A DNA stretch of 64,000 nucleotides from Patescibacteria group bacterium (GTDB lineage: Bacteria > Patescibacteriota > Patescibacteriia > 2-01-FULL-39-33). This document shows, piece after piece, positions 11,244 to 42,865 of the stretch (its first letter is position 1; every line of letters starts with the position of its first letter). The translations under genes were made by a program, and so were the position numbers. The DNA is taken from positions 85,785-149,784 of the forward strand of contig JBAZRV010000002.1 in NCBI GenBank assembly GCA_041662745.1, in the 5' to 3' direction. Under the pieces are notes generated by a model, which was not told where the DNA came from, did no database searches, and was given only the letters and a program-made list of their open reading frames with translations.

Positions 11244-11244
11244 T

Positions 11245-13428
11245 ATGGACTGGCAAAAAAATATCAAGAATATCTTGCTTTGGGGAACACTTGCGGCCTT
11301 ATGGACCCCGCTGATTTTTTATCGCCAGGCGATTTTCCCCTATATTTCTCCCAAAAATTTCTTTTTCCGCTTTATTGTGGCAGTTCTTTCTGCATTGCTG
11401 ATTGGTTATATTTTACAGAGGAAGAAGTTGGTTTTTTCAAGCCATAAGATATATTTTTCTTTTTTAGTTTTTCTGTTGGTTAATCTTATTGCCGCGATTT
11501 TCGCCGTAAATCCGCAATTGGCTTTCTTCGGCAGTTTTGAGCGCATGGGAGGCTGGTTCAATTTATTCTTTTTGAGCCTGTTTTTTCTAATTGTTATTAA
11601 TGTATTTGAAACTAAGGATGATTGGCTTAAATTACTGCGGTCATCAGTGATCTGTTCGGCGATATTATCCATTTATTCTTTGATTGTCCGCTTCGGCCAT
11701 AACATTCCGGTCGGCTGGCCCAAAAACGGCGCCACCTTGGGAAATATTGATTTTTTGGGCGCTTACCTGATGCTTAGCGTATTCTTGGGCCTGTTAGCGT
11801 TTGTTTTGGAAAAAAACAATAAATGGCGGATGGCTTATGGAGCCATTATAGCCATAAATCTTATAGTTTTGCTTCTGACCGCCGCGCGAGCCGGAATATT
11901 GGGCCTATTTTTCGGCTTGTTTATTTTCGCGATTTTTATTTTTATCAAGGCTGGTAAAAAAATCAAATACAGCCTTGCCGGCTTGTTAGTGATATTAATT
12001 TTATTCGGCGGCATCGCTTATCAGCAAAAGGATTCCGCTTGGGTTAGATCATTGCCATTTTTATATCGCTTCACTCAGATTTCCCTTAACGATGCCAGCA
12101 CAAAAGACCGTTTGCTGGTTTGGTATGTTTCTTGGCAAGCCTTTGGAGATCGGCCGATCATCGGTTACGGATCGGAGAATGCCATTTACGGCTTGAATAA
12201 GTATTATAACCCCAGGGTGACGGAAATGTGGTTTGATCGGGCGCATAATTTTATTTTTGATATTTTGCTTGCCAGTGGTTTGATCGGCTTATTGTTTTAT
12301 TTGTCAATTTTCGGCTTGGCTTTTTGGCTGATATTGAAGAATTTAAACCGTAATTATTATCTTGGGGCTATTTTATTTAGTTCTCTGGCCGGATATCTTG
12401 CCAGTAATCTATTTAATTTCGATACCATCAGCTCCTGGCTACCTGTAATATTAATCTTGGCTTTTATCGGGCATTGGACAAAAAAAGAGAATAGTGAGAA
12501 TAATCTCCCCCGATTGCTCGTTAAATTTGATTTTATTACGGCCGGCACGCTGATTTTTATTCTTGCTTTAGTCAGTTATTTTACGGTCTTGAAGCCGGCT
12601 TATGCCGGCTATTTCGGTTCGTATGGAAGTGCTTATGCCGATCAATACCCGGATAAAGCGATAGTTTTTATGGAACGAGCAATAAGCTTGAATACTTATG
12701 GCAATCGAGAGTTGGCTATGCAGTTGTCGGAGTTTGATCGGCAATATAATGAATCGTCGGAACTTGACTCTGTTAAAAAGAAGGAATATTTTGACATATC
12801 CGAAAAAGCCTTGTTGGATTATCTGAAATCTGACCCGAATAATATCCAACCCAAGATTTTTTTGGCCCTGCTCTATCAAAGTTTTGCCAAGGAAAATTCT
12901 TTTTATATTAGTGAATCAATTCGGCTTATGGAGGGCAACATCAATAATTCACCTCAGAGAATCGAGATTTATAATATTTTAGCTCAGGGATATTATTTGA
13001 GGGGTGATTATGATCGGGCGGTTAAAAATCTAAAAGTTTCCTTATCAATCAATAATTGGGATGAAGACCAATATTTGAATTTGATCAATATCCTGTCGCA
13101 ACGGAATGATTTGGCAGAAATGAATAAGTATATTAATGAGTTTTTGACTAATATCAAAAGTATTTCTCCCGACGGCTATAAGCGCTTGGGGCAGTATTAT
13201 TTCAATGTCGGCAATGTCGATGAAGCTGAGCGCGTTGTCCGTGATTTGGCCATTCCTGCCAATCCTGACTATTTGCCGACCAGAATCGCCCTGGCCTCTA
13301 TTTATGAATCTCGCGGCGAGTATGATCGGGCTATAAATTATACCCAAGAAATGATCAATATCCATCCAGAATGGGCAGAAACCCTAAATAATTATATTAA
13401 ATATTTGAACGACAAGAAAAATAGGTAA
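11245..13428 (+). CDS. O-antigen ligase (Wzy_C) family polytopic membrane protein with C-terminal TPR domain
   Basis: More than 10 TM helices. DRAHNFIFDILLASGLIGLLFY motif matches the Wzy_C/O-antigen ligase family. C-terminal ~250 aa are TPR-like. The ATG at 11245 is preferred over the TTG at 11218 given in the ORF track. Confidence 0.65.
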   Translation: MDWQKNIKNILLWGTLAALWTPLIFYRQAIFPYISPKNFFFRFIVAVLSALLIGYILQRKKLVFSSHKIYFSFLVFLLVNLIAAIFAVNPQLAFFGSFERMGGWFNLFFLSLFFLIVINVFETKDDWLKLLRSSVICSAILSIYSLIVRFGHNIPVGWPKNGATLGNIDFLGAYLMLSVFLGLLAFVLEKNNKWRMAYGAIIAINLIVLLLTAARAGILGLFFGLFIFAIFIFIKAGKKIKYSLAGLLVILILFGGIAYQQKDSAWVRSLPFLYRFTQISLNDASTKDRLLVWYVSWQAFGDRPIIGYGSENAIYGLNKYYNPRVTEMWFDRAHNFIFDILLASGLIGLLFYLSIFGLAFWLILKNLNRNYYLGAILFSSLAGYLASNLFNFDTISSWLPVILILAFIGHWTKKENSENNLPRLLVKFDFITAGTLIFILALVSYFTVLKPAYAGYFGSYGSAYADQYPDKAIVFMERAISLNTYGNRELAMQLSEFDRQYNESSELDSVKKKEYFDISEKALLDYLKSDPNNIQPKIFLALLYQSFAKENSFYISESIRLMEGNINNSPQRIEIYNILAQGYYLRGDYDRAVKNLKVSLSINNWDEDQYLNLINILSQRNDLAEMNKYINEFLTNIKSISPDGYKRLGQYYFNVGNVDEAERVVRDLAIPANPDYLPTRIALASIYESRGEYDRAINYTQEMINIHPEWAETLNNYIKYLNDKKNR

Positions 13429-23561: not shown

Positions 23562-23633
23562 TACCGCCACGGGGAATCGAACCCCGATTACAGCCTTGAG
23601 AAGGCCGCGTCCTAACCATTAGACGATGGCGGC
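23562..23633 (-). tRNA. tRNA-Glu (anticodon CUC)
   Basis: Hand-folded cloverleaf: acceptor GCCGCCA/TGGCGGT, D-arm GTCT-AATGGTTA-GGAC, anticodon stem CGGCC/GGCTG with loop TTCTCAA, T-arm CGGGG-TTCGATT-CCCCG, discriminator A. The + strand ORF 23415..23615 is a shadow of it. Confidence 0.8.
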
Positions 23634-23798: not shown

Positions 23799-26114
23799 AT
23801 GAATCTAAAGCAATTTTTGGCGCCGGCATTAAAAGTTGTAATCTGGGCCTGTTTGGCGGTGGTGCTGTTTTCCGCTTTATACGTCAGTTCCGCTCTGTTT
23901 TTCCCCTTTATCACCTCCAAGACTTTTGCTTTTCAAATTGCCGTAGAGGTAATGTTTTTGGCCTTTTTGTTGCTTTGTTTGGTTGATGACAAATACCATA
24001 TCCGGCTTAATGTCACCGTGCTTTTGCTCCTGCTTTATCTGATAATCTTAACTATCGCCTCGGCTTTTTCCGGCAACGACCTTTATCATTCTTTCTGGTC
24101 CAACAACGAGCGTTGCGACGGCATTCTATTGTTAATTCATTTATTTTTATTTTGCGCCGTCTTGTCGGGTTTTTTCCGCTCTGTCAAAGAATGGCTGTAT
24201 CTTTTTGACCTGTTCTTGTTAGCTTCCTTTGCCGTCGCTTTGGTGGCGTTGGATCAATATTTGGCTTTGACCTTCGTCGGCTCTTGGAAGGATCACTTTT
24301 TACCCTCGTCAAACGGCGCGCGTTTGGCCGGAACCATCGGCAATTCCGGTTATGTCGGCGGTTATATGGTGTTTGGGATTTTTATCGCTTTATTCATGGC
24401 CTTGAAACGATCGCAGTGGTGGGCCAAGAGTTTGTATGTCTTAGCGATTATTTTGGAATTGTTCATCGCTGTCCAAACCTTCACTCGCGGCGCTTACCTG
24501 GCTTTGGGGCTGGGCGGATTCATCACCTTGGTTTATCTGGGTTATTTCTATTACAATAAATTGCGGTTGAAGATCGCAACCACGGGTTTAGTCTTAATCG
24601 TTTCATTATTTATCGTTGTCATCTTCGGTTGCGGCAGCGGCAAGATTTTAACCCCGGGTTTTGGGTTTTCTTGGGAGCAAGGATTCCATAAAACCGCCGT
24701 CTGCAATAATTTCGCTTATGCCAATCCGGTTTTAAAAAGAATCAATTCCATTTCCTTGACCGACGTTACCAGCAATAATCGCATCGTGGCTTGGACTATC
24801 GGTTTGAAGGGTATCGCCGCCAGGCCGATCCTGGGTTACGGCCAAGAGAATTTTTATCAAGTTTTTGACAAATATTATACGACTAAAAGTTCCGAACAGT
24901 GGTTTGATCGTTGCCATAATATGTTTTGCGATCGCGCCGTAACCGGCGGAATTCCGGGTTTGCTGTCCTATCTGGCCGTTCTGTTATTACCCTTCTTCTT
25001 TTTGTGGAAATATTATTTTAAGGAATACGGCAATAACAAAGAACAGGGGGATGCGGACAGGGATTACAAGAAGTATTTGACGCCGGTTATTTTCAGTATC
25101 TTGATTATCGCTTATCTGATCCAGAATTTTTTCATTTTTGAGGCCTTGGCGATTTACATCCCGCTGATAATCGTGTTGAGTTTCGTCGGCCAGTACAGCC
25201 GAAGTTGGAATTTTGATTTTTTAGAAAATCATAATTTTAAAGTGGCTCTGGCCGTAATCGTCGGTATTTTGTTTCTGCCGGCGCTTTGGTTTTTCAGCTT
25301 GAAACCGTTTTACGCCAATGCCGATTTTATCAAAGCCCTGACCAGGCCTTGGCCGACCCTGCAAGATAAGATTGATTCCTTTGAAGAAGTTATCGGTCGC
25401 GGCACTTTGGGCAACCAAGAGTATCGCAAGCATTACTTTGATTTTTATGGCAACGAACTGATGAGTTATTTGTCCCAGGCAGCCAACCGCACATCGGACA
25501 AAGACCGGCAAATGGCCAATTGGTCCGATTTGATGGAAAACCAATTCTTAAATCAGTTGAAAGAAAATCCCCATAGCGTTACCAATTGGCTGTTGCTTGA
25601 AAGATTTTATAATATTTCTTATGTTTTCAATGTCAATCGCCTGCAGAAGGCTATCGGCATTGCCGATCAGATGATCGCTCTAAGTCCGGGCAGACCTCAG
25701 ATATATTACGAAGCCGGCTCCGCTAATTATTATCTGGGCTGTTTCCTGCTGACTGAAAAAAATAACCCCGTGGAAGCCAAAAAGCAATATCAGCAAGCTT
25801 TGACCAGATTTTGGCAGGGCGCCAAGATCAATAATCAGGTCGGCAACGGCTTTGATCAATTCAGTGATTTTGTCTTATCCATTAAAAATAACGCCCAGAT
25901 TGCCGATACGTTCGCTCAAGCCTTGGCTACGGGACCGCTAGACGATATAGCGCCCTTAGAATTAATCAAGCAATTGGCCGAATGGTCCAAGACGCCGGAT
26001 GATCAGGCAATTATGGCGCAAAGGGAGGAGAAGCTTAAAACCATGGCCGTTTGGCTAATCGCTTCCCGAGCCGGCAATCCCGAATTAAAACAATACCTGG
26101 AAACAATCAAATAA
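23799..26114 (+). CDS. O-antigen ligase (Wzy_C) family membrane protein with C-terminal TPR-like domain (paralog of 11245..13428)
   Basis: Polytopic; DRCHNMFCDRAVTGGIPGLLSYLAVL motif parallels DRAHNFIFDILLASGLIGLLFY of the paralog; C-terminal ~280 aa soluble repeat domain. Confidence 0.65.
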   Translation: MNLKQFLAPALKVVIWACLAVVLFSALYVSSALFFPFITSKTFAFQIAVEVMFLAFLLLCLVDDKYHIRLNVTVLLLLLYLIILTIASAFSGNDLYHSFWSNNERCDGILLLIHLFLFCAVLSGFFRSVKEWLYLFDLFLLASFAVALVALDQYLALTFVGSWKDHFLPSSNGARLAGTIGNSGYVGGYMVFGIFIALFMALKRSQWWAKSLYVLAIILELFIAVQTFTRGAYLALGLGGFITLVYLGYFYYNKLRLKIATTGLVLIVSLFIVVIFGCGSGKILTPGFGFSWEQGFHKTAVCNNFAYANPVLKRINSISLTDVTSNNRIVAWTIGLKGIAARPILGYGQENFYQVFDKYYTTKSSEQWFDRCHNMFCDRAVTGGIPGLLSYLAVLLLPFFFLWKYYFKEYGNNKEQGDADRDYKKYLTPVIFSILIIAYLIQNFFIFEALAIYIPLIIVLSFVGQYSRSWNFDFLENHNFKVALAVIVGILFLPALWFFSLKPFYANADFIKALTRPWPTLQDKIDSFEEVIGRGTLGNQEYRKHYFDFYGNELMSYLSQAANRTSDKDRQMANWSDLMENQFLNQLKENPHSVTNWLLLERFYNISYVFNVNRLQKAIGIADQMIALSPGRPQIYYEAGSANYYLGCFLLTEKNNPVEAKKQYQQALTRFWQGAKINNQVGNGFDQFSDFVLSIKNNAQIADTFAQALATGPLDDIAPLELIKQLAEWSKTPDDQAIMAQREEKLKTMAVWLIASRAGNPELKQYLETIK

Positions 26115-26163: not shown

Positions 26164-27312
26164 TTATTTCCGATACGCTTCAATGGTTTTTTCTATCATT
26201 TCTCTTAGGTTGAATTCTTTTTTTACTTTGATCAGCCCCGCTTCGCCGAATTGCTTTCTTAATTTTTCATCGGCCAACAGCTTTATTTTTTCGGCTAGCC
26301 TTTCCGGCGATCGCGGTTCAATCAGATAACCGGTAACGCCATTGTCAATTATTTCGGGAATGCCGCCGACCTTAGCGGCTATGACGGGCAAGCCGGCCGA
26401 CATGGCCTCCAGTATGAAGTAGGGCAGGCCTTCTTTGGTTGACGACATCACGGCCAAGTCAAAAGCTTTCAAGTATCTGGCGGCTTCTTTTTTGTTGCCG
26501 GCCAGAATAATGTTAGCTTCTAATTTTAATCGTTTGATCTGTTGTTCTAATTCCTTCCTTAATTCTCCTTCGCCGATGATTATCAGCTTGTAATCGGCAA
26601 CCGGCAGGAGACTGACAGCGTCAATTAAATAATTCAATCCTTTAGCCGGGTAAAAGTTGGCAATAGTTCCGATTATCAGCTTATCATTATTTTTAGTAAC
26701 AGTCGCCGAGTCGTCGGTTTTTAATAATTCGCCCAAAGCCCCTTCTTTAGCCAAAAAATAATCAGCCGGCAGATCTATGCCGTTACGAACGATTATTAAT
26801 TTTTCAGCCGGAGCGATTTTTGCTTTAAGGCCGGCTTGCCGATCAAAATCAGACAGGCAAATGAAATAATCCTTAAAACCGGCAAATGATTTTTCTATCA
26901 AAAAATAAAACAGTTTAGTCAGGGGATTGAGGCTTTCATTAAAAACCCAGCCGTGTACCGTATAAACCACTTTAGCGCGATGGCGGGCTAATTTGGCGGC
27001 CAAGGATCCCACCGCTCCGGCTTTACTGCTGTTTAGATGGACAACATCGGGCCGTTCTTGTTCAATCAGTGTTTTTATCTCTTTGACTGCCAACAAATCA
27101 TTAATCAAACTGATCCTTCTCACCAATCTCTTAAGGGGAAGGAATTTTATATTTTCTTCTTGCAATCTTGCTGTTAATTCCCCGACAGACTCTTCCCCGC
27201 CGGCCACCGTAACGGCTATGTTATTATTTTTGGCTAAATTTACAGCAAAAGTATGGACATATTTTTGCGCTCCGCCCCAGGATGATTGAGTGATGATAAA
27301 TAACGCTTTCAT
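26164..27312 (-). CDS. glycosyltransferase family 4
   Basis: GT-B fold; E-x7-E motif EGLPYFILEAMSAGLPVIAAKVGGIPEII. Confidence 0.8.
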   Translation of the reverse strand: MKALFIITQSSWGGAQKYVHTFAVNLAKNNNIAVTVAGGEESVGELTARLQEENIKFLPLKRLVRRISLINDLLAVKEIKTLIEQERPDVVHLNSSKAGAVGSLAAKLARHRAKVVYTVHGWVFNESLNPLTKLFYFLIEKSFAGFKDYFICLSDFDRQAGLKAKIAPAEKLIIVRNGIDLPADYFLAKEGALGELLKTDDSATVTKNNDKLIIGTIANFYPAKGLNYLIDAVSLLPVADYKLIIIGEGELRKELEQQIKRLKLEANIILAGNKKEAARYLKAFDLAVMSSTKEGLPYFILEAMSAGLPVIAAKVGGIPEIIDNGVTGYLIEPRSPERLAEKIKLLADEKLRKQFGEAGLIKVKKEFNLREMIEKTIEAYRK

Positions 27313-27610
27313 AAGTTGTCGTCTTGATTTTTTTAGCTTATTTCTGATATAATATTAAGGTATTAATTGATAATTTACAAGACCGCCATGAACAAATTAA
27401 TCGGTTTTATCGGCCAGGGTTGGATCGGCAAAAGTATAGACATATTTTTGCGCTCCGCCCCAGGATGATTGAGTGATGATAAATAACGCTTTCATAAGTC
27501 GTCGTCTTGATTTTTTTAGCTTATTTTTGATATAATATTAAGGTATTGATTGATAATTTACAAGACCACTATGAACAAATTAATCGGTTTTATCGGCCAG
27601 GGTTGGATCG
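27245..27610. repeat. direct tandem duplication of a 183-bp unit (27245-27427 and 27428-27610, ~97% identical)
   Basis: Aligned by eye: the offset is exactly 183 with about 6 mismatches. Each unit carries the 5' end of the minus-strand GT4 gene, the divergent intergenic region and the 5' end of the + strand dehydrogenase-family gene. The junction has gcaaaa microhomology. Confidence 0.9.
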
Positions 27611-28422
27611 GCAAAAATTATGCCGATGACTTTGAAGTTAGAGGTTATCAAGTGATTCGCTATTCTTTGGAAGAACCCTATCTCGCCAACAAGGAAAAAA
27701 TCAGCGAGTGCGATATCGTGTTTATTGCCGTGCCTACTCCTACCACTCAAGCGGGGTTTGATGATTCCATCGTCAGAAGCGCCGTAAAGCTGGTCGGCCA
27801 AGGCAAGCTTGCGGTAATCAAATCTACGATTCTGCCCGGTACGACAGAGTCAATCCAAGCGGAAAACCCAGGCGTTTATTTGTTTCATTCGCCGGAGTTT
27901 CTGTCCGTTTCCACCGCTTATGACGATTCGCGCCATCCGCAAAGGAATATTGTCGGCCTGCCCATAGATAATGAGGAATATAAAACCAAAGCCCGAGAGG
28001 TGATGTCGGTGTTGCCCCAAGCTGATTTTTCTCTTATTACTTCCGCCAAAGAAGCGGAGTTGTTCAAATATTTACGGAATTGCTTTTTTTACACCAAAGT
28101 CGTCTATATGAATATGCTTTATGATCTGGCTAAGAAACTGGGTTGCCGGTGGGAAGTGTTAAGGGAAATCATGTCCAATGATCCCTGGATCGGCAACATG
28201 CATATTGATCCGGTGCATAAAAGCGGCCGGGGCGCCGGCGGAGAATGCTTTATTAAGGATTTGGCCGCGCTTAGGCGTTTCCACAAGCAAAATCTGAACG
28301 ATGAAACGACGGATTGGGTTTTTTCCGCCTTGGAGAAAAAGAATATTGAATTACTGCTAAAAAGCCAAAAAGATTTGGATTTGCTCAAAGGCGTTTACGG
28401 CGAAGATATATTTAAGAGATAG
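27571..28422 (+). CDS. short UDP-glucose/GDP-mannose dehydrogenase family protein (NAD-binding and catalytic-Cys region only)
   Basis: IGFIGQGWIGKNYA Rossmann motif; FIAVPTPT...VIKSTILPGTT; GAGGECFIKDL matches the catalytic GGxCFxKD motif. About 284 aa, so it lacks the usual C-terminal UDP-binding domain. The ATG at 27571 is preferred over track start 27550. Confidence 0.5.
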   Translation: MNKLIGFIGQGWIGKNYADDFEVRGYQVIRYSLEEPYLANKEKISECDIVFIAVPTPTTQAGFDDSIVRSAVKLVGQGKLAVIKSTILPGTTESIQAENPGVYLFHSPEFLSVSTAYDDSRHPQRNIVGLPIDNEEYKTKAREVMSVLPQADFSLITSAKEAELFKYLRNCFFYTKVVYMNMLYDLAKKLGCRWEVLREIMSNDPWIGNMHIDPVHKSGRGAGGECFIKDLAALRRFHKQNLNDETTDWVFSALEKKNIELLLKSQKDLDLLKGVYGEDIFKR

Positions 28423-28438
28423 TTTGCTATGTAACCTG

Positions 28439-28458
28439 TTACGTAGCATGCTACGTAA
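28439..28458. promoter_or_regulatory. perfect 20-bp palindrome TTACGTAGCATGCTACGTAA, 12 bp upstream of the first gene of the 22-gene array
   Basis: Read directly; its reverse complement is identical; overlaps the expected RBS region of the gene starting at 28470. Confidence 0.35.
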
Positions 28459-28469
28459 CAATTTATCAC

Positions 28470-29657
28470 ATGCCTGCGGAAAACAAAAAAAGAATCTTGA
28501 TTTTTTCTTTGGCTTACCATCCGTTTGTGGGCGGAGCCGAAGTGGCTATCAAAGAAATTACCGAGCGATTGGGTGAAGATTTTGAATTTGACATGATCAC
28601 GGCCAACTTGAGTGGCCATGAGCCGAAGGAGGTTGAGAATTTTAACGGCCTTAACAAAGTTTATCGCCTCGGTTCCGGGAAACTTGATAAATATCGTTTT
28701 CCTTGGCTGGCCTATCGGAAGGCCCTGGAATTGCAACGGCAGAACGATTATGACTTGATTTGGGCGATGATGGCTAATCAAGCGGGCTGGGCGGCTTGGA
28801 AATTCAAGCGCCGATTTCCGCAAATCCCTTATTTATTGACCCTGCAAGAAGGGGACAGCGAGCGGGATATTTGGCTTCGCACTTGGTTTATCCGGCCGCT
28901 TTATAAGGCGATTTACCGCCGCGCCGATCGGATTCAGGCGATCAGTAATTTTTTGGCCCGGCGCGCCAAGCGTTTGGGCGCGAAGTGTCCGATTGAGGTA
29001 GTGCCGAATGGAGTAGATCAGTTAAAAATTAATAATGAAGAATTAAGAAATAAAAGTAATAGCATAAAAAGGGTTATCTCAGTTTCAAGGTTGGTTAATA
29101 AAAATGGCTTAGAGGATTTGATTAAAGCAATTGCGATAGTCAATAAAGACAATGATAAGCCGGTAATTTTAAAAATTATCGGAGAAGGAAGATTAAGAAA
29201 CGAGTTAGAAAAACTGATTAAAAAATTAAAAATAAATGACCGGCCTGTAGTAAAGGAATTAGACAAGGAGGAAATAGTTTTGGCGGGGCAAGTTTCTAAT
29301 AAGCAGGTGTATCAATATTTATCTCAAGCCGATGTTTTTGTCCGTCCCTCATTGTCCGAAGGTTTGGGTAACGCTTTTCTGGAAGCGATGGCTGCGGGGG
29401 TGCCGGTAATCGGCACGCCGGTCGGCGGGATTCCTGATTTCTTAAAAGGCGAGGAAGCGGGAGACGGGCAGACCGGTTGGTTCTGCGAAGTGAAAAATCC
29501 TGAAAGCATTGCGAAAAAGATTAGATTGATTTTTGATCCCCAAAATCAGGAATTAGTTAAAGTAGTAACAACTCGGGCTAAAAAGTTGGTGGAAGAAGAA
29601 TACGATTGGGATGCAATCACTAGTAAGATAGATAAAATTTTTACACAATTATTATAA
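28470..29657 (+). CDS. glycosyltransferase family 4
   Basis: SEGLGNAFLEAMAAGVPVIGTPVGGIPDFL E-x7-E motif. An internal AT-rich segment lies at ~28990-29290. Confidence 0.8.
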   Translation: MPAENKKRILIFSLAYHPFVGGAEVAIKEITERLGEDFEFDMITANLSGHEPKEVENFNGLNKVYRLGSGKLDKYRFPWLAYRKALELQRQNDYDLIWAMMANQAGWAAWKFKRRFPQIPYLLTLQEGDSERDIWLRTWFIRPLYKAIYRRADRIQAISNFLARRAKRLGAKCPIEVVPNGVDQLKINNEELRNKSNSIKRVISVSRLVNKNGLEDLIKAIAIVNKDNDKPVILKIIGEGRLRNELEKLIKKLKINDRPVVKELDKEEIVLAGQVSNKQVYQYLSQADVFVRPSLSEGLGNAFLEAMAAGVPVIGTPVGGIPDFLKGEEAGDGQTGWFCEVKNPESIAKKIRLIFDPQNQELVKVVTTRAKKLVEEEYDWDAITSKIDKIFTQLL

Positions 29658-31390: not shown

Positions 31391-32113
31391 ATGAAAGATA
31401 TTTTATTATTGCCCACCTACAACGAGAGAGAGAATGTCAAAATGATTATTCCTGAAATTTTTTCCCTTATTCCCGAAATAGTAGTCATGGTTATCGATGA
31501 TAATTCACCTGACGGCACGGCGCAAGCGGTGCAAGAGTTGATGACGATTTATCCCCGGTTAAGAATTTTGAAACGAGAAAAAAAGACCGGACTGGGCAAT
31601 GCCTATAAGGAGGCGATGCGTTTGGTTATGGCTGAAGACGGTGTCCGCTCGGTTATCACTATGGATGCCGATGGTTCTCATCAGCCCAAGTATTTGGTTG
31701 ATTTTTTGGCTAATATTAATGATTATGATTTAATCATTGGTTCGCGCTATATCCGGGGTGGCGGCGTAGAGAACTGGGAATTTTGGCGCCGTTGTTTAAG
31801 CCGTTTCGGCAATATTTATTCCAAGATTCTTACCGGCCTGCCGATTAATGATTTCACCGCCGGTTTTATGTGTGTTAAGGTGGATTTTTTAAAGCAGTTA
31901 GATTTGGTTAGTGCCGGCGCCTCGGGTTATTCTTTTTTGATTGAATTGAAATTCAATTTGATCCATAACCTAAAAGCCAGAGTCAAGGAAGTGCCGATTA
32001 TATTCAAAGTGAGAAGGGAAGGAGAATCCAAGCTGTCTAACTCAATTATCGGCGAGGGAATAATGACCCCGCTAAGAATTTGTTCCAGAAGAATATGGCA
32101 GAACAAAAAATAA
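31391..32113 (+). CDS. GT2 polyprenol-phosphate glycosyltransferase (Dpm1/ArnC-like)
   Basis: LLPTYNERENV...VIDDNSPDGT...DADGSH GT-A motifs; 240 aa. Confidence 0.8.
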   Translation: MKDILLLPTYNERENVKMIIPEIFSLIPEIVVMVIDDNSPDGTAQAVQELMTIYPRLRILKREKKTGLGNAYKEAMRLVMAEDGVRSVITMDADGSHQPKYLVDFLANINDYDLIIGSRYIRGGGVENWEFWRRCLSRFGNIYSKILTGLPINDFTAGFMCVKVDFLKQLDLVSAGASGYSFLIELKFNLIHNLKARVKEVPIIFKVRREGESKLSNSIIGEGIMTPLRICSRRIWQNKK

Positions 32114-35100
32114 TTTGCCCGATTTGCCGATCGGCTGACAATAAATTTTACGGCCAGAAAAATAATTTCAATCTGCGGTTATGCCGGGATTGCGATTTGC
32201 TTTTTGTTTGGCCGGTGCCGTTTGATTTAAAAGGAATTTATTCTCAAGATTATTTTGTTAACAGTCGGAATAACAGTGATTTCGGTTATACCAATTATGA
32301 TCAGGATAAAGAATCAATGCGCGAGGTATTTGTAAAAATCATCAGTCAGTTGGAAAAGCTTATCCCAGGTAGAAGAATTTTTGATGTCGGCGCGGCCACC
32401 GGTTATTTTTTGGACTTGACTAAGCAGCGGGGCTGGCAGACCGCGGGAACGGAAATATCTGACTACGCCGCTAAGGTCGCTAATGAACGCGGACATAGGG
32501 TTTTTTGCGGTGAGTTGGATCAGCTGCCAATTGAGGGTAAATTCGATGTGGTGACGATGTGGGACGTACTGGAGCATATTGGCGATCCCCTGGCCTATCT
32601 CAAGAAGGCTAATGACCTATTGGTTGATGGCGGCTTAGTGGCCATCAATACTGTAGATCGGGGCAGCGCTTTGGCCAGGGTTCTTGGGTTGAATTGGCAT
32701 TTGATTGTCCCGCCGGAGCATTTGAATTTTTATTCCCGCGAAAATTTAGAGATCGTTTTGCGACAAGCCGGGTTTGAAATCATTAGTATTTCCACTATCG
32801 GAAAGAAATTTTCTCTGGCGTATATTTTTAAGACGTTGTATTTCTGGCAGGGCTGGGGCTTATGGCGCAGTTTGTCAGTGTTTTTTGACAAACCGTTTTG
32901 GCGCCGCTGGTCTTTGCCGGTAAACTTGCGTGACAATATTTATATTTTGGCGAGAAAGAGAAGCAGTTCGATTGTCCGATTGCCAGGGGAAAACGCCGGT
33001 AAGCGAAAAAATTTATTAATTTGTGCCGGCATTTATCCGCCGGATATCGGTGGCCCGGCAACTTATGTGAAGGGTTTAGAAAGGGGATTAGCCGAAGAAT
33101 TTAATGTCAAAATCGTGACTTACGGCGACCAAGAAGGCCAAGAACCCTCTCACGTTTATAAGATATCTCGCCAACAGCAAGTTGTTTTTAGATATTTAAA
33201 ATATTTTTGGCAGGTGGTTAAGTTATTGCCGCAAGCGGATGTTGTTTATATTCAGGGGCCGGTTTCCGAAGGCTTGCCGGCTGCTGTGGCTTGCGGTTTA
33301 AGGCGCAAGGCATACCTATTAAAAATCGTCGGTGATTTTGCTTGGGAGCAGGGCAGCCAGCGTTATGGCGTCAAGGAGAATCTTGATAATTTTCAGCACA
33401 ATAAATACGGTTTCAAGATTGAATTATGGCGGCGGATTGAAAAATGGGTGGCGCAGAAAGCCAAGTTGGTTGTCGTTCCCAGTAATTATTTGAAAAAAGT
33501 CGTTACCGGTTGGGGCATTAAAGCTGACAAAATAAATGTCATCTATAATGCGATTGAAAGAATTGATATTATTGAAAACCGAGAGCAGCTAAGAAATAAG
33601 TATGGCCTGGATGGTTTTGTTATGTTATCGGTCGGTCGCCTAGTCCCCTGGAAGGGCTTGGCCGCCCTGATTGAAGTAGTCAAAGAATTGTCTGCAGAAA
33701 TTAATGATTTAAAATTAGTGATTATCGGTGACGGCCCGGAGCGTCAGAATTTGGAGAATTCAGTTAAGGCCAAAGGGTTGGAGAAAAACATTATTTTTAC
33801 CGGGCAATTAAGCAGGTCTGAGGTGGCTGCTTACTTGAAGGCCGCAGATTTGTTTATTTTAAACACTTCCTATGAGGGGTTAAGCCATGTTTTAATTGAG
33901 GCTATTAAGGCCGATTTGCCGATAGTTACGACCGCTGTTGGCGGTAATCCTGAATTAATGGAGCAATATGGCCACGGCTTTATGGTGGCCTATAATAATA
34001 AGCCGGAGTTGATTCAAGCAATCAAACAAGCTAGAAAAATTAATCGTCCGATTGAGACGACTGGAGATTTTTTATTGCAGTTCGATTATGATTTTATGGT
34101 TAGTCAGACCGGTCGGTTATTGCGGGCTGAAGCGGTTAGAACCGATATTGCCATTACCGATCAAAGACGAGAGAAAATTTTAAACGACTGTGATCGGCAA
34201 ACTATTGTTTTAGTTCAGATTAATTTTAGCCAAGACCATTCGGAAACAGTTTTGCCCCTAGGCATCTTATCGGTCGGCAGCCATTTGAAACGTTGCGGCT
34301 ATAAAGTTGAACTGGTAAATATTACGGAAAAACAAATTACTGAGATAGCCGCGATTATCGCCGAGAAAAATCCGCTCTGTGTCGGCTTATCAGTTATGAC
34401 CGGCGTGCAGACGCGCCAGAGCGCTGAATTATCCAAAAAAATAAAAACTTTAAATAAGGCCATACCAATTATTTGGGGCGGTATTCATCCGTCGCTTTTG
34501 CCAGAGCAGTGTCTGGGTGAGGATTACATTGATTTCGTAGTTATTTCTGAGGGAGAGATAACTACGACGGAATTAGTAGAAAAAATAATCAGAGGAGGGG
34601 ATTTTCATGATGTTTTAGGCATCGGCTATAAGCAAGCCGGAAAAATTACCATCAATCCCAACCGCCCGTTTATTGCCAACCTTGATGATTTCCGCCTTGA
34701 TTGGTCTTTATTGGATTTGGAGCTTTATATTTCTCCGTTGAAAAATTTTAAGCGAGTTATTGCTTACAAGGCCTCGCGCGGTTGCCCGTTTAATTGCTCT
34801 TTTTGCTATAATAATGCCTTTAATCAGAATAAGTGGCGTGTTTGGTCGGTGGAGGCGGTAGCGGAGGACATTAATTGGCTGAAAGAGCATTATCAGATTG
34901 ATGCCGTTAAATTTTACGATGATAATTTTTTTGTTGATAAGAATCGCGCTTGGCAGATCTTAGAAAAAATAAATTTACCGACGCATTTGGAGGTGCGAAT
35001 TGATACGATTGACGACGACTTGGCTCAAAAACTCAAAGAGTTTAGGGTTTTTGACATGTTAATCGGCGTCGAGTCGGGCAGCGATCGCATTTTAAGTCTA

Positions 35101-35631
35101 ATCGATAAAAGATTTACCGTTGATCGTATTTTGGCCGGAGTAAAGCTTTTAGCCAAGTATAATTTACCGGCTACTTATTCGGCGATTGTCGGTTTGCCGA
35201 CGGAAACCAAGGAAGAGTTTGACCGAACAGTTGACTTGTTTAATCAAATTAAAAAAATTCAGCCGTCCGCGGTTTTTTCCTTAGGCGCTTATTTGCCTTA
35301 TCCGGGATCAAAAATGTATGATTTTGCCATTAAGCAGGGTTTTAAGCCGCCAACTAAAACAGAAGATTGGGGCAAGATTGATCGTTTTAGGAAAGATTTT
35401 AGTTCGCCTTGGGTGAACGCGCAAAAAGTTTGGCGGATTAGGGAATACTTTAAACTCCTGAATTGGCGGCTTGGTCCAATTATCAAGTGGTTTAAATGGC
35501 GCATTGAGCATCGATTTTTTGCTTGGCCGATAGATATTTATTTAGTGGAATACTTTGGCGGTATAGCTATTGAACAGAGGGGGTTTTTAGGCAAGACACT
35601 AAGAAAAATTTATAATTTATTAAGAAGATAA
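32095..35631 (+). CDS. tri-domain fusion: Zn-ribbon plus class I SAM methyltransferase / GT4 glycosyltransferase / B12-binding radical SAM
   Basis: aa ~1-300: CPICRS...CRDCD zinc ribbon and IFDVGAATGYFLD MT motif I. aa ~310-690: GT4 with SYEGLSHVLIEAIKADLPIVTTAVGGNPEL. aa ~700-1183: B12-binding Rossmann region then ASRGCPFNCSFCYN CxxxCxxC. One uninterrupted 1183-aa frame. ATG at 32095; the track begins at TTG 32080. Confidence 0.7.
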   Translation: MAEQKIICPICRSADNKFYGQKNNFNLRLCRDCDLLFVWPVPFDLKGIYSQDYFVNSRNNSDFGYTNYDQDKESMREVFVKIISQLEKLIPGRRIFDVGAATGYFLDLTKQRGWQTAGTEISDYAAKVANERGHRVFCGELDQLPIEGKFDVVTMWDVLEHIGDPLAYLKKANDLLVDGGLVAINTVDRGSALARVLGLNWHLIVPPEHLNFYSRENLEIVLRQAGFEIISISTIGKKFSLAYIFKTLYFWQGWGLWRSLSVFFDKPFWRRWSLPVNLRDNIYILARKRSSSIVRLPGENAGKRKNLLICAGIYPPDIGGPATYVKGLERGLAEEFNVKIVTYGDQEGQEPSHVYKISRQQQVVFRYLKYFWQVVKLLPQADVVYIQGPVSEGLPAAVACGLRRKAYLLKIVGDFAWEQGSQRYGVKENLDNFQHNKYGFKIELWRRIEKWVAQKAKLVVVPSNYLKKVVTGWGIKADKINVIYNAIERIDIIENREQLRNKYGLDGFVMLSVGRLVPWKGLAALIEVVKELSAEINDLKLVIIGDGPERQNLENSVKAKGLEKNIIFTGQLSRSEVAAYLKAADLFILNTSYEGLSHVLIEAIKADLPIVTTAVGGNPELMEQYGHGFMVAYNNKPELIQAIKQARKINRPIETTGDFLLQFDYDFMVSQTGRLLRAEAVRTDIAITDQRREKILNDCDRQTIVLVQINFSQDHSETVLPLGILSVGSHLKRCGYKVELVNITEKQITEIAAIIAEKNPLCVGLSVMTGVQTRQSAELSKKIKTLNKAIPIIWGGIHPSLLPEQCLGEDYIDFVVISEGEITTTELVEKIIRGGDFHDVLGIGYKQAGKITINPNRPFIANLDDFRLDWSLLDLELYISPLKNFKRVIAYKASRGCPFNCSFCYNNAFNQNKWRVWSVEAVAEDINWLKEHYQIDAVKFYDDNFFVDKNRAWQILEKINLPTHLEVRIDTIDDDLAQKLKEFRVFDMLIGVESGSDRILSLIDKRFTVDRILAGVKLLAKYNLPATYSAIVGLPTETKEEFDRTVDLFNQIKKIQPSAVFSLGAYLPYPGSKMYDFAIKQGFKPPTKTEDWGKIDRFRKDFSSPWVNAQKVWRIREYFKLLNWRLGPIIKWFKWRIEHRFFAWPIDIYLVEYFGGIAIEQRGFLGKTLRKIYNLLRR

Positions 35632-39230: not shown

Positions 39231-40349
39231 ATGAATAAGTCATTGACATTAAAAAAGATAATTAAGAAAATCGGCATTTATCAGTCGCTGCGAAATAGTT
39301 GGGAAAAACTCCAATCTCGAAAATATCGCGATACTTTGTTTTTGATTGAAAACAAAAAAGATCTGCCTCTGCCCAAAGATATTATTTTCGAGCCAACAAC
39401 CCGTTGTAATTTAAATTGTTGCATGTGTCCGCAACGCGAAGAGCGCAAACAACTAAAACCGGATTTGCCTCCCAGCCAAACCAAGGACTTATTGATTAAA
39501 CTTAAAAAAGAGCTCGATATCAAATCAATTAGTTTGATCGGCGGAGAGGTTCTGGTCAGAAGTGATATCTTGGAAATCATAAAGACGCTCAAAGATTTAC
39601 ATATTAAGGTTTTTATTTCAACTAATGGAACATTGATTGATGAAAGATTGGCTGGAGAGTTTAATAAATTTAAGAATATTTCCGGCTTGGCTTTTTCTCT
39701 TGATGGCTTAAGGGAGAGGCACAACCAGATTAGGGGCAAGGATTATGCTTTTGATGGTGTTAAACAGGCCGTGGCTTTGCTTAAAGATGATTTTTCTTTG
39801 ACCATTAACGCTGTATTGATGGATGAAAATCTTAATCAGTTGGTGGATTTAGCCCGACAAATCAAGGCTTGGGGGGTGCCTAATTATTCTTTACAGTTTG
39901 AAATGTTTTCTACTGCCGCTGAAGTGGCTGCATCGGCGAAAATACTAGGGTTAGAGAATCAGGAAGATATTGCTGTAGAAATTAAAGAAAATCAGGATTA
40001 CAGTTTTTCCCAAGAGGCGATTAGCGCGATTATTGAGGAATTAAATAAAATTCCCGGTTTAGCTTTGATGATCCAACCGCGTCTTTATTCTCGTTTTCCC
40101 GAATTTTATTTAAAAGGAGAATTAAGGCAAAAAGTAAAATTAGATTGCAAGTATGTTAATACCTTGAGAATTAGCGCTCAAGGGAAAATGATTTTTTGTC
40201 CTTTTATCAAAAAAAGTTTTGGCAGTTTATTAACTAATGATATCGCTAAAGTTTGGAATAGTGCTGAGGTGAAAGACTTCAGGCAAAAACTTTATGCTAA
40301 TAATTTAACGCCGGTCTGCAAGCGTTGTTGCCGCTTGGGCGCGAAATAA
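39231..40349 (+). CDS. radical SAM protein with C-terminal SPASM/twitch-like Cys cluster
   Basis: EPTTRCNLNCCMCP (CxxxCxxC); C-terminal CPFIKK...CKRCCRLG cysteines. Confidence 0.75.
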   Translation: MNKSLTLKKIIKKIGIYQSLRNSWEKLQSRKYRDTLFLIENKKDLPLPKDIIFEPTTRCNLNCCMCPQREERKQLKPDLPPSQTKDLLIKLKKELDIKSISLIGGEVLVRSDILEIIKTLKDLHIKVFISTNGTLIDERLAGEFNKFKNISGLAFSLDGLRERHNQIRGKDYAFDGVKQAVALLKDDFSLTINAVLMDENLNQLVDLARQIKAWGVPNYSLQFEMFSTAAEVAASAKILGLENQEDIAVEIKENQDYSFSQEAISAIIEELNKIPGLALMIQPRLYSRFPEFYLKGELRQKVKLDCKYVNTLRISAQGKMIFCPFIKKSFGSLLTNDIAKVWNSAEVKDFRQKLYANNLTPVCKRCCRLGAK

Positions 40350-41511: not shown

Positions 41512-42864
41512 ATGAAATTTTTTTTGTTAGTGCCGAATTTTAATCAAGGAAAAAAATCAATTATGAGTGTCAGGGCTAGACAGCCGCTGTCTATGGCGAT
41601 TATCGCTGCTATATTGATTAAAGATAGTCACCAGGTAAAATTACTGGACGCTAATGTTTTAAATTTATCTTTAACGGAGGTTCTGGCCGAGATTGCGGCT
41701 TATGGGCCGGATTTTTTTATTTTGACTTCAACTAAAATTGATCGCTGGGAGTGTCCCAATTCCAATATTGAAAATATTTTTCAGATTATCAATCAGGTTT
41801 CAGCTAAGTATAAAATTTTAATTGGCAGTCATGGCACTACTATGCCGGAATGGGTATTTGAAAATTGCCAAACAGATTTTATTATTCGAGGCGAACCTGA
41901 GTTAGCCGTTCAGAATTTGATTATCAGCCTGGTTAGTGGTCAAACTATTTCAAATATCGCCGGCTTATCTTATCGTCAAGGAGAGAAGATAATAAATAAT
42001 CCCAGCGAAAGAATAACTGACTTGGATATTTTGCCACTCCCGGCTTATAATTTATTGCCGATGGCTGAATACTCTTGTAATGATTTTGAAAAGCCTTTTT
42101 CAATTGTGATGACCTCGCGTGGCTGTCCCTATAATTGTATTTTTTGCCTTAAAGCAATGATGCCGGGTCAATATGTTGTTAGAAGTGTTGATAAGGTGCT
42201 CGAAGAAATAGAATACCTGATAAAAAATTTTCAAATTAAATCTATTTTTTTTCAAGATTGGGAATTTTTTATTGATAGTGACAGAGTCGAAAAAATTTGC
42301 TTGGAAATTATTAGACGTGGTTTAAAATTCACTTGGGGCGCTAATGCCCGAGCGACGGATATTACCAAAAGCGAATATCTCATGCCTTTAGTTAAGCAGG
42401 CTGGTTGCATTCTGATTAATTTGGGTATGGAATCTGCCAGTAATCGAGTTTTGGAACGAATTAATAAAAGAATAACTCAAGCTGATTTGCAACAAGCTGT
42501 AGATATTTTTAAGATTCATGGTATTAGTGGTGGTTATTGCGTCCTTTTAAATGCACCAGGGGAGAACCATCAAACGATTCAAGAAACGATTGATTTTGTG
42601 GTTAAAAATGATTTACAGGTTAAGCAATTTTTGCCAGTCATTCCTTACCCCGGCACAGTCCTCTTTGATCTTATTAAGAAGAAATTTCCTAATCGAATTT
42701 TAAATTGGAATAATATCGAACAATATGCTGGTTTAATCGAAGTTGAAAGTAAACCTTTTTGGAGCCTGTGGTTTTTAAGAAATTATAAAAATCATCTGAA
42801 ATATGGCCGAGGCTACTGGTTAAGGCCGGTTTTTTGGCGCGAAGTTGTTCTAAAAAATAAATAG
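41512..42864 (+). CDS. B12-binding domain radical SAM protein (class B)
   Basis: N-terminal cobalamin-binding Rossmann-like region; MTSRGCPYNCIFCLK. Confidence 0.8.
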   Translation: MKFFLLVPNFNQGKKSIMSVRARQPLSMAIIAAILIKDSHQVKLLDANVLNLSLTEVLAEIAAYGPDFFILTSTKIDRWECPNSNIENIFQIINQVSAKYKILIGSHGTTMPEWVFENCQTDFIIRGEPELAVQNLIISLVSGQTISNIAGLSYRQGEKIINNPSERITDLDILPLPAYNLLPMAEYSCNDFEKPFSIVMTSRGCPYNCIFCLKAMMPGQYVVRSVDKVLEEIEYLIKNFQIKSIFFQDWEFFIDSDRVEKICLEIIRRGLKFTWGANARATDITKSEYLMPLVKQAGCILINLGMESASNRVLERINKRITQADLQQAVDIFKIHGISGGYCVLLNAPGENHQTIQETIDFVVKNDLQVKQFLPVIPYPGTVLFDLIKKKFPNRILNWNNIEQYAGLIEVESKPFWSLWFLRNYKNHLKYGRGYWLRPVFWREVVLKNK

Positions 42865-42865
42865 T

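Follow-up and report, generated by a model that had tools for sequence, protein, structure and literature searches.

In the genome of an uncultivated groundwater Patescibacteria bacterium, the region between two divergently oriented genes at the head of a glycosylation gene cluster is present twice in direct succession. This arrangement raises the question whether the repeat is a genuine feature of the genome, how it arose, and whether it serves to regulate the adjacent genes or is the trace of a mutation. The original prediction, which was based on the letters of the window (the whole 64-kb stretch of DNA that was analyzed), had proposed a tandem duplication of a divergent promoter together with both gene starts, which could either double transcription initiation or act as a length-variable expression switch.

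Tandem Repeats Finder reported an array at positions 27245–27616 with a period of 183, 2.0 copies, 96% matches, no indels, and a score of 702. A repeat search returned two head-to-tail units of 97% identity, which abut at 27427/27428 with no spacer and 0% indels (Table 1). Direct comparison of the units yielded exactly six mismatches, all of them transitions and corresponding to 3.3% divergence, and the longest stretch identical between the units measured 61 nt. Hence, the proposed duplication of 2 × 183 bp at ~97% identity was confirmed. The predicted contents of the units were likewise borne out, except for small corrections to the sizes. On the GT4 side, each unit contains 22 codons plus 2 nt (68 nt), on the side of the dehydrogenase-family gene 13 codons plus 1 nt (40 nt), and the intergenic region between them measures 75 bp. 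The repeat runs 6 nt past the right end of unit 2, so that the hexamer GCAAAA, which had been predicted as microhomology at the breakpoints, is present at all three boundaries (27245, 27428, and 27611); an extension of 6 nt would occur by chance with P of about 3e-4. The sequence spanning the duplication junction is GGATCGGCAAAAGTATAGAC. The right hexamer is held by a hairpin (ATCGGCA-AAAATTA-TGCCGAT, 27607–27627; DNA fold −8 kcal/mol, z = −3.2), which may represent a polymerase stall site; the same hairpin was flagged in the related locus L087. Besides the 183-bp duplication, the window contains no other long repeats, no third copy of the unit, no occurrence of the promoter motif outside the two units, and no hallmarks of a mobile element as the source of the duplication, such as relevant inverted repeats or dispersed copies. 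A dispersed or mobile promoter element was rejected because the motif is confined to the two units and the window lacks another long repeat.

Table 1 Features of the duplicated region and of the adjoining genes, with positions counted from the first nucleotide of the window
Feature	Position	Strand	Details
GT4 glycosyltransferase gene	26164..27312	-	full length, 382 aa
Short nucleotide-sugar dehydrogenase-family gene	27571..28422	+	full length, 283 aa; without the usual C-terminal domain
Repeat unit 1	27245..27427		5' start of the working GT4 gene (68 nt), intergenic copy 1, and 40-nt decoy dehydrogenase-family start
Repeat unit 2	27428..27610		68-nt decoy GT4 start, intergenic copy 2, and start of the working dehydrogenase-family gene (40 nt)
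Left GCAAAA microhomology	27245..27250	+	
New junction GCAAAA	27428..27433	+	reads ...GGATCG/GCAAAA/GTATAGAC...
Right GCAAAA microhomology	27611..27616	+	just after unit 2, within the hairpin in the dehydrogenase-family gene start
Unit mismatch	27255/27438		G/A
Unit mismatch	27317/27500		T/C
Unit mismatch	27344/27527		C/T
Unit mismatch	27365/27548		A/G
Unit mismatch	27385/27568		G/A
Unit mismatch	27387/27570		C/T
Rightward promoter copy 1, P_R1 (predicted)	27324..27353	+	TTGATT, 18-nt spacer, TATAAT, extended -10 TG; 10/12 matches plus TG
Rightward promoter copy 2, P_R2 (predicted)	27507..27536	+	hexamers identical to P_R1
Candidate leftward promoter copy 1 for GT4	27352..27380	-	TTGTAA, 17-nt spacer, TAATAT; 8/12, below scan threshold
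Candidate leftward promoter copy 2	27535-27563	-	
Decoy ORF, 26 codons	27388..27468	+	MNKLIGFIGQGWIGK, then junction read-through SIDIFLRSAPG, stop
Decoy ORF, 32 codons	27397..27495	-	MKALFIITQSSWGGAQKYVYTFA, then DPTLADKTD, stop

The identities assigned to both genes were borne out, with a GT4 glycosyltransferase on the minus strand and, on the plus strand, an ORF that contains the UDPG_MGDP_dh N-terminal and central domains. The latter is the first of ~29 kb of co-directional glycosylation genes, and its divergence from the related locus L084 (dS = 0.23, dN = 0.0045) indicates strong purifying selection. The anatomy had also been described correctly, as the outer copies join the full-length genes and the inner copies form decoy starts; deletion of one unit from the window in silico restored a normal gene start. 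A TTG at 27550 is unlikely to be the true start of the dehydrogenase-family gene, because L087 lacks this TTG and the Rossmann GxGxxG motif begins five residues after the ATG.

The comparison with related genomes that had been suggested as a check found the duplication in none of them and a single copy in all eight related lineages examined (L084, L087, L003/L086, L165, L166, L167, L169/L170). The duplicated form is therefore the derived state. Self-comparison of ~170 related loci (165 + 5) revealed no comparable tandem duplication at the same gene start; other direct repeats, which were seen in L035, L141, and L147, were unrelated. The single-copy locus L087 shares the same GT4/intergenic/dehydrogenase arrangement and contains GCAAAA at its positions 5858 and 6041. 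These are the homologous sites, exactly 183 bp apart, and thus constitute a substrate for one-step microhomology-mediated slippage.

These results point, with a probability of roughly 0.7, to a genuine, lineage-specific tandem duplication that arose in one step through slippage at GCAAAA, and which is a mutation and not a programmed or reversible switch, with an effect that was most likely neutral or modest. We infer that a single-copy ancestor would have carried the GCAAAA pair 183 bp apart, in codons 22–23 of the GT4 gene and codons 14–15 of the dehydrogenase-family gene, with a 7-bp hairpin enclosing the second hexamer. While the DNA was replicated, or in an exchange between sister strands, a 3' end terminating in GCAAAA would have re-paired with the upstream hexamer, and the 183 bp between the hexamers would then have been copied a second time, leaving both outer genes intact and every element of the segment doubled. 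The locus would accordingly illustrate that a bidirectional promoter can double in one step with neither gene damaged, and would offer a natural example of a textbook mutation that was caught soon after the event and whose pre-duplication substrate is preserved in a relative.

Microhomology-mediated duplications are also familiar from the classical lacI and gene-amplification literature. In E. coli, spontaneous tandem duplications and deletions with breakpoint microhomologies of 3–12 bp have been shown experimentally to rewire promoters (PMC6614815). Like the promoter-capture duplications described there, the repeat studied here is head-to-tail and spacerless, has a 6-bp direct repeat at both ends in the single-copy state, bears no mobile-element signature, and changes the promoters upstream of a gene. 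It differs from them in that its 183 bp contain no complete gene but a divergent promoter and two gene starts, resulting in two decoy ORFs and a convergent inner pair. Moreover, it was found in uncultivated Patescibacteria with no selection experiment, and its copies have diverged asymmetrically.

Several observations bear on the age of the duplication. The decoy and working coding pieces show one difference in 108 nt (GT4 1/68, dehydrogenase 0/40), which indicates that the duplication event is young and rules out an old duplication followed by neutral drift. As a proxy of age, this amounts to about 0.008 substitutions per site versus dS = 0.23 to the nearest relative. The coding difference affects residue 22 of GT4, which is His in the working gene and Tyr in both the decoy copy and L087; the change at 27255 is thus derived in the working GT4 gene. 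All five remaining differences are transitions that are derived in unit 2 (27500, 27527, 27548, 27568, and 27570), and unit 1 has the ancestral state at all five of these intergenic variable sites. They are packed into 71 nt of the intergenic/promoter copy of unit 2, where about 0.6 would be expected (P about 4e-4). None of the seven other lineages carries the unit-2 variants, and no donor lineage was found among them. Strand-coordinated deamination was ruled out as the cause of the clustered changes, as these mix all four transition types. Together with the identity of unit 1 and L084 described below, the clustering may mean that a second event took place, for instance recombination over a short patch or selection acting on this promoter copy, or that the units stem from different alleles. 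The spread of the six differences departs from simple drift after a young duplication, and their clustering is an oddity.

Recombination between two diverged alleles, through homology-facilitated illegitimate recombination (HFIR) upon DNA uptake from a related strain or through unequal crossover between strains, would be another route to the repeat, but we consider it unlikely. A donor fragment spanning GT4, the intergenic region, and the dehydrogenase start would have used a homology anchor on the left and an illegitimate join at GCAAAA on the right, and the 3.3% would reflect the divergence of donor and recipient. This scenario draws on the typical microhomology of 3–10 bp at HFIR junctions (PMC3240628), which, as here, lie beside homology in a locus that is mosaic between lineages. 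Gene content at the locus indeed varies between lineages, and while the dehydrogenase-family gene is 95% identical to that of L084, the flanking genes are 74–77% identical or not homologous. Furthermore, the intergenic region and dehydrogenase start of unit 1 match L084 at 117/117 bases (123/123 counting the adjoining GCAAAA at 27428–27433), whereas unit 2 differs at five sites and the dehydrogenase body by 4.6%. However, with a conserved intergenic region this identity exceeds expectation only slightly (about 3 differences according to our own estimate), and the working dehydrogenase-family gene equals L084 over its first 74 nt. With alleles as far apart as the dehydrogenase bodies (pS 0.20), several synonymous differences would be expected in the coding pieces beside the variant sites, yet these pieces are near-identical between the units. 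Neither a donor nor a recipient allele was seen in the seven other lineages, and no protein at least 90% identical to GT4 was found elsewhere in the collection. In addition, HFIR normally produces an insertion plus a deletion and joins foreign to resident DNA, whereas the present structure is a clean tandem repeat of resident type for which no donor allele was identified in these comparisons. L084 could not be established as a conspecific single-copy strain, as its contig begins within the start codon of GT4 and its downstream genes reach no more than 74–84% identity to any other locus.

As had been claimed, the duplication takes in the entire divergent promoter region. In the promoter scan, a near-consensus rightward core (TTGATT-18-TGaTATAAT) was intact in both units. 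This core is kept in seven lineages as CTTGAT-N17-TCTGnTATAATATTARGGTA; the C that immediately precedes the extended -10 TG is otherwise invariant but is replaced by T in P_R2 (27527). No strong leftward promoter passed the scan, whose sole leftward match falls inside the GT4 coding sequence. The candidate leftward hexamers are conserved in L003 and L087, and the element at 27352–27380 and its copy might, tentatively, be regarded as the GT4 promoter. A symmetrical effect of the duplication on GT4 is therefore weakly founded.

Two predicted promoters of the same orientation lie 5' of the dehydrogenase-family gene, as is the case for tandem promoters, and no terminators were found between the two copies. 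The doubled transcription initiation suggested in the original prediction is plausible from the sequence. The dehydrogenase-family gene and the ~29-kb cluster would be transcribed from two near-consensus promoter copies arranged in tandem at a distance of 183 bp, with plus-strand starts predicted near 27360 and 27543 and minus-strand starts of the leftward copies near 27345 and 27528. Transcription from the upstream copy would yield a leader of about 210 nt with the 26-codon decoy ORF, and GT4 would show the mirror-image arrangement with the 32-codon decoy ORF. The two inner promoters would face each other, which should lead to overlapping antisense RNAs and some transcriptional interference. 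These expectations of promoter activity, face-to-face transcription, interference, and any effect on fitness were derived from the DNA sequence. The leaders of the inner promoters folded no better than shuffled sequences (27360–27620, plus strand, z = +0.2; 27525–27270, minus strand, z = +1.9), and an Rfam scan of the window yielded a tRNA at 23562–23633 as its sole match and none in the repeat. Some tandem repeats in promoters raise expression, for example TR34/TR46 in the cyp51A promoter of Aspergillus fumigatus, and tandem P1/P2 promoters are comparable. As in these systems, copies of the same orientation are located 5' of one gene and were made by duplication. The present case differs from them in being known from sequence alone, in including translated gene starts, and in being bidirectional, with extra copies predicted to fire towards each other. 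On balance, the duplication was most probably neutral or altered expression modestly; if the copy number varied or the extra promoters altered cluster expression, it would matter more.

A regulatory module kept by selection, in which the tandem promoters raise or buffer cluster expression, the inner pair couples GT4 and the cluster via interference or antisense RNA, and the five clustered substitutions in unit 2 represent adaptive retuning, is very unlikely in our view, as is its variant in which the copy number still varies as an expression dial.

The duplication is very probably real. A second assembly, made with MEGAHIT at k = 141, agrees with it at every base over 12.8 kb, and the two separately assembled contigs (150,369 vs 238,918 nt) have the same structure, although the two assemblies may go back to one sample or to related samples. 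The 238,918-nt contig comes from a JGI/IMG sample (NCBI proteins MFA6227906.1 and MFA6227907.1), and the ENA assembly is ERZ27249449. As the longest identical stretch is 61 nt, a k = 141 graph separates the units. The unit-1-specific bases 27385 and 27387 and the unit-2-specific bases 27438, 27500, and 27527 are situated within 141 nt of the junction, and from the way de Bruijn assemblers work, the MEGAHIT contig should imply that unit-specific bases were linked on single reads. The original argument, by which the mismatches tell against an assembly collapse, is hence sound. In metagenome assemblies with coexisting related strains, the overlapping ends of two contigs or two strain versions of one locus could in principle be concatenated instead of merged; L165 originates from the same ENA sample, and the contig of L084 breaks inside the same intergenic region. 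Such an artefact is nonetheless highly improbable, since the junction sequence is absent from both single-copy forms and thus obtainable by a de Bruijn assembler from reads only, since both assemblies contain the identical junction, with unit-specific bases less than 141 nt away on either side, and since a microhomology of 6 bp (P about 3e-4) in agreement with the hexamer pair of L087 is not expected from plain end-to-end concatenation. This position of the assembly can consequently be marked as trustworthy and not as a collapse.

Surface-glycan loci are often phase-variable in other bacteria, and contingency loci such as the TA repeats of Haemophilus hif consist of many copies of units of 1–10 bp, which vary between close strains and within populations. 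The present locus resembles these in that the repeated DNA belongs to a divergent promoter region by which surface-associated genes are controlled, but it has two copies of a 183-bp unit that are the same in both assemblies. Convergent promoters are known to cause transcriptional interference (PMC5001618, PMC10349824). A selected regulatory device, be it a phase-variable array of promoters whose copy number changes or a toggle of convergent promoters for GT4 and the cluster, would fit the location at the head of a surface-glycan cluster, the intact promoter copies, the face-to-face pair that the duplication necessarily creates, and a substitution excess in the dehydrogenase-proximal promoter copy that could reflect adaptive retuning, but it is very improbable, given that the repeat is confined to a single lineage, while eight relatives have one copy and ~170 loci contain nothing comparable, has two copies only, would once lost have to be regenerated by rare 6-bp slippage and is therefore not readily reversible, produces long leaders without RNA structure or Rfam match, and is accompanied by no invertase, recombinase, or short-unit repeat. 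The predicted length-variable expression switch is unsupported in view of the same distribution of copy numbers, with two copies in both assemblies of the population and one in all other lineages, of the rare slippage needed for regeneration, and of the 3.3% divergence that the copies have already accumulated.

Gene regulation in Patescibacteria is, to our knowledge, almost unexplored, and the conserved promoter core and the mosaic cluster anchored on the conserved dehydrogenase-family gene are useful by-products of the analysis. The gene calls of the JGI/IMG and ENA copies of the contig include the 32-codon decoy ORF.

Tandem Repeats Finder reported a period of 183 with 2.0 copies, 96% matches, no indels and a score of 702 at positions 27245-27616, and a repeat search of the window found the two head-to-tail units to be 97% identical. 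Base-by-base comparison gave six mismatches, all of them transitions. Six nucleotides past unit 2 still match, which places GCAAAA at 27245, 27428 and 27611. The original prediction of a tandem duplication was correct in its description of the repeat, with slightly amended codon counts: each unit contains 68 nt of the GT4 gene, the 75-bp intergenic region and 40 nt of the dehydrogenase-family gene. The inner, truncated gene copies are referred to as decoys, and the outer, full-length copies as working genes. No other long repeat is present in the 64-kb window.

Coordinates of the repeat, its internal differences and associated features in the window
Feature	Position	Strand	Detail
Unit 1	27245-27427		183 bp
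Unit 2	27428-27610		183 bp
GT4 glycosyltransferase	26164-27312	-	
Short UDP-glucose/GDP-mannose dehydrogenase family member	27571-28422	+	283 aa; N-terminal and central domains only
Rightward promoter copies (predicted)	27324-27353 and 27507-27536	+	
Decoy ORF	27388-27468	+	26 codons
Decoy ORF	27495-27397	-	32 codons
Hairpin with downstream GCAAAA	27607-27627		7-bp stem
Mismatch	27255/27438		G/A
Mismatch	27317/27500		T/C
Mismatch	27344/27527		C/T
Mismatch	27365/27548		A/G
Mismatch	27385/27568		G/A
Mismatch	27387/27570		C/T
Radical-SAM genes	39231-40349, 41512-44281, 48934-50022, 53699-55147	+	
Fusion ORF	32080-35631	+	1183 aa
Wzy_C (O-antigen ligase-like) proteins	11218-13428, 23799-26114	+	C-terminal TPR repeats
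12-nt tandem repeat	396-455	+	4.8 copies, within ORF 132-890

The sequence stems from a metagenome-assembled Patescibacteria genome (proteins MFA6227906.1 and MFA6227907.1; 238,918-nt contig, also in JGI/IMG). A separately assembled MEGAHIT contig (ENA ERZ27249449, k141_1089370; 150,369 nt) matches the window at every base, including the duplication, over the 12,852 nt compared, and the 32-codon decoy ORF is annotated as a gene in the JGI/IMG and ENA copies alike. De Bruijn assemblers cannot invent k-mers. Across the junction, the unit-1-specific bases 27385 and 27387 and the unit-2-specific bases 27438, 27500 and 27527 lie within 141 nt; by assembler logic, their occurrence together in a contig built at k=141 means that they were physically linked on reads. 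An assembly artefact, for example careless concatenation of overlapping contig ends, is highly improbable, as the junction sequence ...GGATCGGCAAAAGTATAGAC... is absent from either single-copy form yet present in the MEGAHIT k=141 contig, and a 6-bp microhomology would not be expected from such concatenation (P about 3e-4).

Homologues of the dehydrogenase-family protein in Patescibacteria comprised 5,732 matches at E <= 1e-20, mostly 280-315 aa long, and the closest loci were drawn from species-representative genomes, JGI metagenomes, ENA and Logan. All of these relatives carry one copy: L087, a locus on a 957-kb contig with about 81% nucleotide identity and the same GT4/intergenic/dehydrogenase order; L003/L086 and L165 from Candidatus Buchananbacteria, with a more diverged GT4 gene and a spacer 8 bp longer; L169/L170 (ENA and Logan), with a 129-bp spacer; L166 and L167 (Logan and ENA), with an epimerase gene inserted after the promoter; and L084, whose dehydrogenase is 99% identical at the amino acid and 95.4% at the nucleotide level. 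L165 and the window's twin contig share an ENA sample. Self-comparison of 165 loci, and of five further ones, revealed no further tandem duplication at the dehydrogenase gene start. The comparison with related genomes that had been suggested as a check thus shows that the duplication is derived and private to the window's lineage. The 43-kb L084 contig (JGI Ga0172379_10001653) starts inside the GT4 start codon, a break in the same intergenic region; in that metagenome, too, strains may vary here or a repeat may be present.

Slippage in a single step within the window's lineage is our main explanation (probability about 0.7). In the single-copy locus L087, two GCAAAA hexamers at the homologous positions are exactly 183 bp apart, which provides the substrate on which slipped strands or sister strands could misalign: a 3' end that terminates with GCAAAA would re-pair with the upstream hexamer, and the intervening 183 bp would then be copied a second time. 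The downstream hexamer lies inside a hairpin (ATCGGCA-AAAATTA-TGCCGAT; DNA fold z = -3.2) and the upstream one forms the start of a weaker hairpin (z = -1.1), and polymerase stalling at these structures is a plausible trigger. Deleting one unit in silico restored a normal gene start. In E. coli, spontaneous promoter-rewiring tandem duplications and deletions with break-point microhomologies of 3-12 bp have been recovered experimentally (PMC6614815). The window repeat behaves like such microhomology-mediated tandem duplications in all their tested defining features and is a new instance of this known kind of mutation. Its interest is modest and lies in its being a natural case, well documented, from a lineage that has not been cultivated; it also draws attention to a conserved promoter of Patescibacteria and to a glycan cluster of mosaic make-up.

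The proposed role as a length-variable expression switch was unsupported. Every relative has one copy, the duplication does not recur, both assemblies contain two copies, the two units already differ by 3.3%, and a collapsed repeat could be regenerated only by rare 6-bp slippage. In its tested features, the repeat differs from a contingency locus.

The six differences were polarised with L084, L087 and L003. At 27255, the coding difference, it is the working GT4 gene that has the derived state (Tyr22 to His). Unit 2 carries the derived base at each of the five intergenic differences, which span 71 nt (27500-27570) and occur in no relative. The change at 27527 alters a C shared by every one of the seven other lineages, directly 5' of the extended -10 TG, and two changes fall at positions -3 and -1 relative to the dehydrogenase start codon; none affects the core promoter hexamers. 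The decoy coding pieces (108 nt in total, presumably unconstrained) show one difference from their working partners, and the age of the event is therefore roughly 0.008 substitutions per site; dS between the window and L084 is 0.23 for the dehydrogenase gene. At that age, ~0.6 changes would be expected in one 76-bp intergenic copy, compared with five seen (P about 4e-4, or about 0.007 if both copies are counted), and this region is normally more conserved than coding sequence (3/77 positions versus 15%, L084 versus L087).

Three tentative explanations for this clustering were considered. A short tract recombined in from a diverged allele would suit the mosaic locus, in which the dehydrogenase gene is 95% identical to that of L084 at the nucleotide level, yet neighbouring genes are 74-84% identical or non-homologous; the unit-2 allele, however, was found in no lineage. 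Selection may instead have retuned the promoter and 5' UTR next to the dehydrogenase gene once the duplication existed. A further possibility is that the duplication itself arose by recombination between two alleles, resembling homology-facilitated illegitimate recombination (HFIR), whose junctions typically carry 3-10 bp of microhomology (PMC3240628), but here too no lineage has the unit-2 allele, and the flanking coding pieces are too alike between units. We therefore keep to one-step slippage for the origin and ascribe the clustered changes to some later event. Strand-coordinated deamination was rejected, as all four transition types are present.

Both units contain an intact predicted rightward promoter (TTGATT-18-TATAAT, extended -10 TG, 10/12), and the scan found the same site in L087. 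The dehydrogenase-led cluster is therefore now preceded by two strong-looking promoter copies 183 bp apart, a tandem-promoter arrangement at the sequence level, and no terminator was found between them by scanning. The core CTTGAT-N17-TCTGnTATAATATTARGGTA (27324-27360) is kept in seven lineages (besides the window, it was seen upstream in L087, L003, L165, L166, L167 and L169), also in cases where an epimerase gene and not the dehydrogenase gene comes first downstream, and might be of use as a reference promoter in work on Patescibacteria. Transcription from the upstream copy would yield RNAs with a ~210-nt leader including the 26-codon decoy ORF. A leftward candidate (TTGTAA-17-TAATAT) is weak, scoring 8/12 and thus below the scan threshold; if real, it would place GT4 behind the same arrangement in mirror image, including the 32-codon decoy ORF. 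Since the divergent promoter was duplicated, the inner putative pair is face-to-face, a configuration reported to cause transcriptional interference and overlapping antisense RNA (PMC5001618, PMC10349824). RNA structure in the long leaders was not significant (z = +0.2 and +1.9), and Rfam gave no match there. From these predictions, we would expect the effect on expression to be quantitative and to lie between neutral and modest. In L169/L170 (about 2415-2475), and also upstream of the gene in loci L088 and L091, ~58 nt are inserted between promoter and dehydrogenase start; the insertion holds a hairpin resembling a terminator and, after it, a run of T (GGGGGAAGCACCCCTCTTTTTG), and may act on the cluster as an attenuator in the leader.

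The dehydrogenase-family gene is the first of ~29 kb of co-directional genes encoding GT4, GT2, GT9 and PMT_2 transferases, a polysaccharide deacetylase, a flippase-type transporter, methyltransferases and several B12-binding radical-SAM enzymes. Its product has no C-terminal domain of the kind usual in UDP-glucose dehydrogenases, and the short form recurs in thousands of homologues from Patescibacteria, so that it is perhaps not a UDP-glucose 6-dehydrogenase of the conventional type. Downstream gene content varies among the window, L084, L003, L165 and L087; the locus is clearly mosaic, and the dehydrogenase-family gene is a conserved island in it that may act as a recombination anchor for the exchange of glycosylation cassettes. 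Over this gene plus 86 bp (27494-28508 region), nucleotide identity to L084 is 95%, and the adjacent genes reach 74-77% or have no homology. The cluster holds unusually many radical-SAM enzymes for one concerned with glycosylation (three bind B12, one has a SPASM domain, one is plain), which suggests elaborate sugar or peptide modification. A single ORF fuses methyltransferase, GT4 glycosyltransferase and B12-binding radical-SAM domains; L084 and L165 have a separate B12/radical-SAM gene of 481 aa. One of the two large Wzy_C/TPR genes lies directly upstream of the GT4 gene. Dispersed direct repeats occur in three other loci: in L147 (4263-4393 / 5333-5463), the promoter and gene start common to two epimerase paralogues 1 kb apart, and in L035 (5869-5975 / 7662-7768) and L141 (5802-5860 / 6965-7024), hairpin-rich elements of 60-107 nt on either side of the dehydrogenase gene. 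Near the start of the window, a short tandem repeat with the unit GAGGGTGAAGGC lies within an ORF.
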